This document shows positions 1 to 1,154 of a stretch of DNA of 64,000 nt, one piece after another. Within the stretch, counting starts at the first letter, position 1. Each line of letters begins with the position of its first letter. The position numbers and the translations under genes are program-made. Source of the DNA: a bacterium (lineage in GTDB: Bacteria; UBP15; UBA6099); contig JBAYJY010000001.1 in assembly GCA_041664945.1 (NCBI GenBank), forward strand, positions 5,976 through 69,975. Reading direction: 5' to 3'. Below the pieces are notes generated by a model. It was not told the DNA's origin, searched no databases, and saw nothing but the letters and a program-made list of their open reading frames with translations.

Positions 1-1154
1 TCCGGGTCGTAGTAGCGGCTGGCGATCTTTTTCTTTTTGAAAGTGCATTTATCGAAGCCCATGCGTTTAAGAACATCGACAACGAGTTTCTTGCCGTCGT
101 CCATGGAAAGATTCTGGTCCATAACGACGACGGAAGCTGAAGTGCTTTCGAAGAGATGGTGCGGGTCCTGCCGCTGTTCGCGGCGGAAGCGCGAGCCGAC
201 TGAGAACAGGCGGACCGGCAGCGGCATTCGCGTGCGCAGTCGCTGAAGGACCGGGAACCAGTTGCTTGTCATGTGCGAGCGGAGCGTCCGGTGTGTCGGC
301 GTGGGCTTGAGTTCCCTGAACTCCGGGAAGACGCGGTCGAGCATCGCGGCGGCCTGATCGCCTGTGATTTTGAGCCGGAGCGCGAGTTCCTCAAGGAAAT
401 CGTCGGCCTCGATCAGGGCTTCCTTGTATTCGCGGAGTAGGCCGCGCAGTTGTTCCTCGCCTTTGAAGTCGGGAACGATTTCGTTGATCAGTTCCATCTT
501 CGCTTTGCTGAGCCCGATTTCCGCGCGGTCGAGACCGGCGATGTAGAAGACGCGGTCGAGAATCAGGGGCGCTTCGGGGCCGTACTGTTTATAAACATGG
601 ACGTCGTCGACGATGGCGGGATTGATCATTTCGTCGAGGCCGAGAGCGAGAAAGACCTCGCGGAACCGCTGGTTGAGAGCGGCGACGGGGTGCTCGCGGC
701 CCGCGCGCATTGTGCGGTCGCCGAGTTCCTTCGGGTCCAGATCGATAGAGCGGCTCAGTTCGCTGATCGGGTGTCCTTTGCCGCTAAGTTCGAACGATTT
801 GTACCAGCCGAACGGGCAGATGATGAGCGGGCTTTCCGAGAGCCGCGCGCGCAGCCCCTTTAGCATGCGGAGCGTGACCGCCGGGTTGGCGAGGTTGCTC
901 GACAGGTGCGAGTAGGGGTAGAGAACGATTGTATGCGCTGCGACCTTGTCGCGAACCTTTTCGATCTCGGCCGCGGCTTTTTCGACAACGAGGTCGGGCG
1001 CCGCTTCGTCCGGCTTTTCGCCGGCGATCATCACGACTAAAGCGTCGTCCGCGCGCCCCTCGGAAACAACGGGCGGCTCGATCTTCTCCGCGAACTTGGT
1101 CTGTTCCGTCGCCTTGAACGAAAACGGCGCCGAATGTATGAATAGGAGTCTCAT
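1..1154 (-). CDS. sepS: O-phosphoseryl-tRNA synthetase (SepRS)-like class II aaRS with an N-terminal archaeal ThrRS-type editing domain; partial, 3' end lies beyond the left edge
   Basis: Minus-strand ORF from ATG at 1154 with no stop before position 1, so it is missing from the ORF track. The first ~145 aa ([57 protein letters not shown]) follow the archaeal ThrRS editing domain motif by motif. The rest ([79 protein letters not shown]) follows the SepRS catalytic core. Confidence 0.8.
   Translation of the reverse strand, partial: [384 protein letters not shown]

Follow-up and report, generated by a model that had tools for sequence, protein, structure and literature searches.

The stretch of DNA considered here, the window, covers 64,000 nucleotides (nt) of a bacterial contig (JBAYJY010000001.1 of assembly GCA_041664945.1, positions 5,976 to 69,975), and at its left end, on the minus strand, lies the 5′ part of a gene for a bacterial O-phosphoseryl-tRNA synthetase (SepRS). 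Almost certainly, this protein carries an N-terminal editing domain (ED) of the type found in archaeal threonyl-tRNA synthetase (ThrRS) in place of the N-terminal extension. The ED-SepRS frame runs from 1154 to 1 as 384 sense codons, stop-free and open at the left window edge, as an earlier note made from the sequence had described it; all of the peptide blocks quoted there are found in the translation. Following the contig leftward, which that note had advised, adds 254 codons past the edge and completes a 638-residue protein, of which the window holds codons 1-384, and recovers the C-terminal anticodon-binding domain. The complete product (P0001; NCBI MFA6447828.1, 'MAG: O-phosphoserine--tRNA ligase [bacterium]', with MAG for metagenome-assembled genome) is 100% identical to the window fragment, and its full gene occupies positions 10001-11917 of L001 (ENA metagenome contig k141_174120, 91,925 bp). 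The start ATG at 1154 is well supported, because a Shine-Dalgarno-like GAGGA lies 7 nt upstream (1162..1166, minus strand) and the encoded methionine pairs residue-for-residue with Met1 of the ThrRS editing domains of Methanocaldococcus jannaschii and Pyrococcus abyssi.

Architecture of the fused protein

Residues 1-137 (744..1154, minus strand) form the editing domain, of archaeal ThrRS type and with a DTD-like fold. They match the whole of Pfam PF08915, tRNA-Thr_ED (E=4.5e-39; 134.1 bits against a cut-off of 30.2; model positions 1-137 of 137), and, by sequence, the M. jannaschii ThrRS domain 4rrf (E=2e-30). An AlphaFold2 model of the full protein, built with 37 homologues, has a mean predicted local distance difference test (pLDDT) of 85.4, and of about 94 in the N-terminal domain. 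In a Foldseek comparison with the PDB, the predicted editing domain falls on 4rrf, which was solved with a seryl-adenosine analogue, at a template-modelling score (TM) of 0.95 and a root-mean-square deviation of 1.2 Å.

In the P. abyssi domain (PabNTD), seven residues have side chains no more than 6 Å from the scissile bond: Pro80, Phe81, Ala82, His83, Tyr120, Lys121 and, from the partner subunit, Glu134, which contacts the substrate alpha-amino group; the strand F117-K121 holds A76 and the seryl moiety, and residues 117-120 are placed at the RNA-protein interface (Ahmad et al., PMC4491819). By alignment, these site residues become P80, Y81, S82, H83, Y118, K119 and E132 in the window protein, with F115-Y118 in the place of 117-120; the loop P80-Y81-S82-H83 is encoded at 906..917, the strand F115-G116-W117-Y118-K119 at 798..812 and E132 at 759..761, all on the minus strand. 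The only substitutions relative to the P. abyssi site are thus F81Y and A82S, and residue 82 presumably contacts the substrate through its main chain. Among 37 aligned full-length fusions, whose identity to the window protein is 43-85%, P80, Y81, H83, G116, W117, K119, G127, H128, P129 and S131 are invariant, with less strict conservation of Y118 (35/37), F115 (34/37) and E132 (33/37). The earlier note had assigned residues 1 to about 145 to an archaeal ThrRS-type editing domain and had called for a look at the editing-site residues and a predicted structure. The PF08915 match agrees with its assignment, P80, H83, Y118, K119 and E132 are all present, and the structural match to 4rrf points the same way.

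A search with the domain alone gave, among the 44 matches listed, archaeal ThrRS fragments or ED proteins in every case, at 47% identity or less, and no clear donor lineage among them. An ED homologue 45% identical to the window domain was seen in an uncultured archaeon (L025, 16528-16935) about 6 kb from a SepRS gene, an arrangement that fits published reports of ED genes associated with Sep-pathway genes in archaea.

The domain is joined to the SepRS body by a linker, residues 138-151 (702..743, minus strand), which has a pLDDT below 50 in the model at residues 146-152, as for a disordered, flexible segment; its length in the 37 fusions is 10-16 residues, and its sequence varies. From residue 152 the protein is SepRS, and the first part of this body, to residue 384, is encoded at 3..701 on the minus strand (positions 41-278 of the NCBIfam model TIGR00470, sepS, and residues 53-288 of the solved SepRS 2du7). 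Residues 149-384 match sepS with E=3.6e-74, at only 250.1 bits for the 384-residue fragment because it is truncated, and full-length P0001 scores 452.3 bits over model positions 41-531 of 533, above the curated equivalog cut-off of 380.65. Since the match begins at model position 41, the canonical archaeal N-terminal extension of about 40-50 residues is missing. The window fragment also matches 2du7 itself (E=3.6e-62), whereas the PheRS (alpha) and PylRS models are far weaker on the SepRS core (E=1e-11 to 1e-5). Alignment of P0001 reaches residue 546 of 549 in 2du7 and 532 of 534 in 2du5, within a few residues of the archaeal SepRS C-termini, and therefore the anticodon-binding domain is present, outside the window. 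Foldseek against the PDB matches the SepRS body of the model to Archaeoglobus fulgidus SepRS (2du3_A, E=6e-40). All of this agrees with the earlier note, in which the editing half ended at about residue 145 and a SepRS core, free of ThrRS or PheRS blocks, began at about 155.

The residues that line the phosphoserine (Sep) pocket are also in place. In an alignment with 2du5, H294-M295-T296 (267..275, minus strand) stand for A. fulgidus H186-M187-T188 in the motif 2 region, and S339-A340-S341 (132..140, minus strand) for S231-A232-S233 with its phosphate-binding serines; N423-I-G425 equals N325-L-G327 in a HMMER alignment with the positions counted. The A. fulgidus numbers T188, S231, S233 and N325 are the ones we take to be right, and they were checked by counting along the alignment only. 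T296, S341 and N423 are found in all 37 fusions, G425 in 36 and S339 in 31. Every true SepRS keeps the Asn-x-Gly motif, and SepRS-like paralogs have it changed (PMC8762117). With the Sep-recognition positions and this motif intact, the pocket is that expected of a genuine phosphoserine enzyme, and it argues against a repurposed paralog. The window protein very probably has SepRS activity. At the position of A. fulgidus Thr305, the fusions have Asn in 36 of 37 cases (N403 in the window protein, past the window edge at about 11207-11209 of L001), in the context E-V-G-N-L-G, compared with E-I-A-T-F-G in archaea.

Distribution, phylogeny and gene context

The fusion is not confined to this contig. 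A protein-database search found about 40 clusters (90% identity) that combine PF08915 and PF01409, and at least 37 of them carry the same fusion; their sources are assemblies in NCBI, JGI, ENA and Logan, with several contigs 60-186 kb long, including ones of 186 kb and 96 kb. When each GTDB species was represented by one genome, 12 species had it (L002-L013). Among these 12 are bacterium ADurb.Bin236 (72% identity), Nitrospirae bacterium HyVt-268 (46%, L010) and a Deltaproteobacteria MAG (50%). A second member of the window protein's own 90% cluster lies on a different JGI contig. Because one metagenome contig underlies the window, one might suspect an assembly chimera, or a frameshift that joins two genes. 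Given the same uninterrupted architecture, with its linker of 10-16 residues, in independent assemblies and samples (37 clusters and 12 GTDB species), we consider such an artefact excluded, its chance being negligible; the single fused protein of the earlier note is borne out by this recurrence.

In distant members, the fusion sits among genes of the Sep pathway. A gene for SepCysS adjoins it, directly upstream in L009 and L010 (HyVt-268), and is adjacent in L084 and L086 as well. The order over 8500-12093 of L084, found also in L085, is DUF169, a SepCysS-type gene (PF00266/PF05889), a small thioredoxin, ED-SepRS and tRNA-Cys(GCA). Read from the sequence, the L084 tRNA-Cys(GCA), at 12018-12093, has A1:U72 as its first pair, U73 as its discriminator and A37. 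U73 and A37 fit published ideas that the ED keys on U73 and that bacterial SepRS is independent of m1G37. In ADurb.Bin236, an operon of SepCysSn and SepCysS has been reported elsewhere in the genome (PMC5424206). In L086 and L087, a 58-residue open reading frame (ORF), a SepCysS-type gene (PF00266/PF05889) and the fusion follow one another. The small ORF (8631-8807 in L086; 190-366 in L087) stops right before the SepCysS start codon and has no Pfam match; it may encode SepCysSn, the small partner that Mukai et al. reported in 2017.

How the domain is distributed within bacterial SepRS was judged from a neighbour-joining tree in which the SepRS part of 37 fusions was set beside 54 ED-less SepRS (486 columns, 100 bootstraps). 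The fusions and 16 ED-less bacterial SepRS of about 476-509 residues form one clade in 99 of 100 replicates, monophyly of the fusions by themselves was recovered in 0 of 100, and the ED-less P0052 groups with two fusions in 100 of 100. Along with P0052, the ED-less proteins nested in the fusion clade are P0042, P0047, P0059, P0060, P0062, P0064, P0076, P0079, P0089-P0091, P0094, P0097, P0100 and P0105. No stand-alone editing-domain gene was found beside ED-less bacterial SepRS in the five loci L014-L017 and L020. The tree suggests more than one loss or gain of the editing domain. One early gain followed by several losses would be the simplest reading, with repeated gain as the less simple alternative; we take this as a lead, neighbour-joining on a limited sample being weak ground.

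The window gene itself is monocistronic. A hypothetical gene of 283 residues diverges upstream, and beyond the left window edge a convergent metallo-beta-lactamase-fold gene lies downstream, followed by mlaD/ABC/mlaE/mreB. Other neighbours encode PGI, HrcA, DnaJ, an RsmE-type methyltransferase, PhoH, a 7TMR-HD protein (PgpH-type) and YbeY, and further ones a diacylglycerol kinase-family protein, PolA (family A, with a 5'-3' exonuclease domain), flagellin and a sigma-54 activator. The surroundings had been called bacterial from the start, and HrcA, DnaJ, the 7TMR-HD protein, YbeY and the family-A DNA polymerase are as named then. Among the closest fusion loci, the only synteny is the divergent 283-residue hypothetical gene, common to L002 and L003, and thus the window protein's clade gives no operon clue.

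The intergenic region upstream of the fusion gene (1155-1536, 382 nt) folds more stably than shuffled sequences (z=-2.9). It holds two hairpin-plus-T-run motifs on the strand of the fusion gene, and the only block that it has in common with the closest relative, L002, is about 30 nt long (GCTTTATTTCGCGGCGGAAATGTATTAAYAT). A search upstream of the gene for a T-box or other regulatory leader gave no Rfam match at E<=1, and a scan of that region found no sigma-70 consensus.

Elsewhere in the window, six large ORFs have no Pfam match at E<=1e-5: those of 1063 residues (21833-25024, minus strand), 597 (56902-58695, minus), 583 (46138-47889, plus), 461 (11984-13369, plus), 420 (31003-32265, plus) and 411 (44091-45326, minus). 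Four same-strand genes at 13447-19188 encode a DUF362 protein, a 774-residue protein with multiple 4Fe-4S domains and DUF6599, a histidine kinase and a sigma-54-dependent response regulator. Two enzymes of the PALP family (fold-type II, pyridoxal phosphate-dependent) are encoded at 32391-33509 and 62342-63634; the second has an N-terminus that we take to be TrpB2-like.

Possible role of the tethered domain

In the explanation that we favour, the SepRS body would charge tRNA(Cys) with phosphoserine, a SepCysS encoded elsewhere in the genome would convert the resulting Sep-tRNA(Cys) to Cys-tRNA(Cys), and the tethered DTD-fold domain would receive the CCA end and hydrolyse Ser-tRNA(Cys) in cis. 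Ser-tRNA(Cys) might come from Sep-tRNA(Cys) that has lost its phosphate, or from mis-charging, and its hydrolysis would prevent insertion of serine at Cys codons. Catalysis in this type of domain is thought to be assisted by the 2'-OH of tRNA A76, and the pocket sterically excludes larger side chains (PMC4491819), so that the bulkier Sep-tRNA(Cys) would be spared. The cis hydrolysis of Ser-tRNA(Cys) proposed in the earlier note seems reasonable from the sequence, and corresponds to the hypothesis of Mukai et al. (2017, 2022). As a full mechanism, synthesis of Sep-tRNA(Cys) with cis hydrolysis of Ser-tRNA(Cys) by the tethered domain is, in our judgment, somewhat more probable than not. A broader reading, in which a working cis-proofreading of Ser-tRNA(Cys), with Sep- and Cys-tRNA(Cys) spared, dates from a single gain in the ancestor of a large bacterial SepRS clade and was lost repeatedly afterwards, is more tentative, and we would put it a little short of an even chance; the gain-and-loss part of it comes only from the neighbour-joining bootstrap tree, and the proofreading half is the published hypothesis.

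Several points weigh against the full mechanism. Cys-tRNA(Cys) is nearly isosteric with the seryl ester, and may not be spared. Closely related bacterial SepRSs lack the editing domain. Most side chains in the ThrRS editing domain are dispensable for activity (Ahmad et al., PMC4491819), and the conservation of pocket residues is therefore supportive but weaker-than-usual evidence for activity. A targeted full-text literature search found no paper testing the activity of any fusion member. The earlier note had also advised a look for SepCysS, SepCysE and tRNA-Cys; neither the 64-kb window nor a further 12 kb or so of flanking contig yielded a SepCysS, CysRS or tRNA-Cys (Pfam on 40 window ORFs, tblastn with the SepCysS of two relatives, ARAGORN on the window and flanks, and the flanks in L001 and L088). 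Membership of this organism in the pathway thus rests on its relatives and on the ADurb.Bin236 report.

An active deacylase might instead have a substrate other than Ser-tRNA(Cys) made by dephosphorylation: it might clear serine, glycine or alanine misactivated by SepRS itself, or act on other tRNAs with U73 that dock transiently. The conserved serine-binding site fixes the amino acid roughly and is silent on how it was loaded onto the tRNA, the P. abyssi domain is present in the PDB with seryl, threonyl and glycyl analogues, and the 2022 paper itself asks which amino acid is mis-ligated (PMC8762117). However, tethering to SepRS and the adjacent U73-bearing tRNA-Cys of L084 point to tRNA(Cys) as the RNA substrate, and we regard this rival as unlikely, if worth keeping in mind. 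Less probable again is a scaffold without hydrolysis, that is, a module for dimerisation or for binding the CCA end and U73 that replaces the archaeal extension, or the SepCysE adaptor, in the hand-over of Sep-tRNA to SepCysS. One can see its appeal, with the domain exactly at the place of the canonical extension (sepS model from position 41), ED-SepRS in operons with SepCysS in distant members, and the domain dispensable in related lineages. Yet the ten editing-domain residues that stay invariant in fusions about 44-50% identical overall make the pattern expected from purifying selection on an active site, and the predicted fold is within 1.2 Å of the substrate-bound M. jannaschii domain.

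The earlier note had offered as an alternative a repurposed SepRS paralog, which would charge an amino acid other than phosphoserine and use the editing domain to police its new specificity. SepRS-like proteins with altered pockets do occur in Thermoplasmata and Deltaproteobacteria (PMC8762117), and the Asn at position 403 of 36 of the 37 fusions could be seen in the same light. However, the fusions keep all four positions for Sep recognition as well as the Asn-x-Gly motif, the score exceeds the sepS equivalog cut-off, and SepCysS adjoins the fusion in relatives; this alternative is disfavoured, and we find it very improbable.

If proofreading of Ser-tRNA(Cys) by the fusion is real, it would guard an intermediate of tRNA-dependent amino acid biosynthesis, for which no other proofreading step is known, and would show clearly that a bacterial synthetase can recruit an archaeal editing module. 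If the gain-and-loss history also holds, ED-less and ED-bearing sisters would amount to a natural experiment on when proofreading is needed. SepRS is a workhorse of genetic code expansion with phosphoserine, and a natural variant with a built-in serine filter could then serve engineers. These ideas on significance have been in print since 2017 and are not new here.

Relation to published work and known systems

The ED-SepRS architecture and the Ser-tRNA(Cys)-editing hypothesis were set out by Mukai et al. (mBio 2017, PMC5424206; Front Genet 2022, PMC8762117). The fusion called in the earlier note therefore stands as an architecture, but its novelty is lost. Section 3.2.2 of the 2022 paper deals with 'Desantisbacteria-like' bacteria and Nitrospirae HyVt-268, with the fusion modelled on 4RRF; it reports three fusion variants and a completely conserved serine-recognition motif, and argues that fusion restricts the domain to tRNA(Cys), since bacterial tRNA(Gly) also has U73 (PMC8762117). 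The founding example, OQA87054.1 (cluster P0008), aligns gap-free with the window protein over 637 residues at 72% identity, and the two fall in one clade. The class now counts at least 37 clusters and 12 GTDB species, well beyond the three variants of 2022. What is new here is this wider census, the operon and tRNA context in distant members, the hint of repeated domain loss and one further sequence.

The window protein shares with the class of Mukai et al. an ED that replaces the N-terminal extension, a short linker, a complete SepRS with anticodon-binding domain, conserved serine-recognition residues and a bacterial host; it differs in that MFA6447828.1 is from another organism, one not discussed in those papers. 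In HyVt-268-type members SepCysS is directly upstream, whereas the window gene stands by itself with no SepCysS nearby. Compared with the archaeal SepRS of A. fulgidus (2DU3), M. jannaschii (2DU7) and Methanococcus maripaludis (2ODR), it has the same class II PheRS-like core, inserted domain and anticodon-binding domain, with 36-38% identity in Foldseek structural alignments, phmmer E values of 1e-102 to 1e-111 and the Sep-pocket residues kept. It departs from them in its 137-residue editing domain without the N-terminal extension, in Asn403 for Thr and in its bacterial host. With the archaeal ThrRS editing domains (PabNTD, 1Y2Q/2HL1; MjNTD, 4RRF; ApNTD, 4RR6), and with the free-standing tRNA-Thr-ED or Ser-tRNA(Thr) hydrolases, its N-terminal domain shares the DTD-like fold and the motifs PYxHLS, FGWYK and GHPxSE. 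Unlike the domains of archaeal ThrRS, it is carried by SepRS and not by a ThrRS core or ThrRS anticodon-binding domain, and it presumably acts on tRNA(Cys) instead of tRNA(Thr). In PheRS, a sister synthetase family, the B3/B4 module of the beta subunit edits Tyr-tRNA(Phe). There too a class IIc synthetase is paired with a post-transfer editing site, an analogy only, with an unrelated editing fold on a separate subunit.

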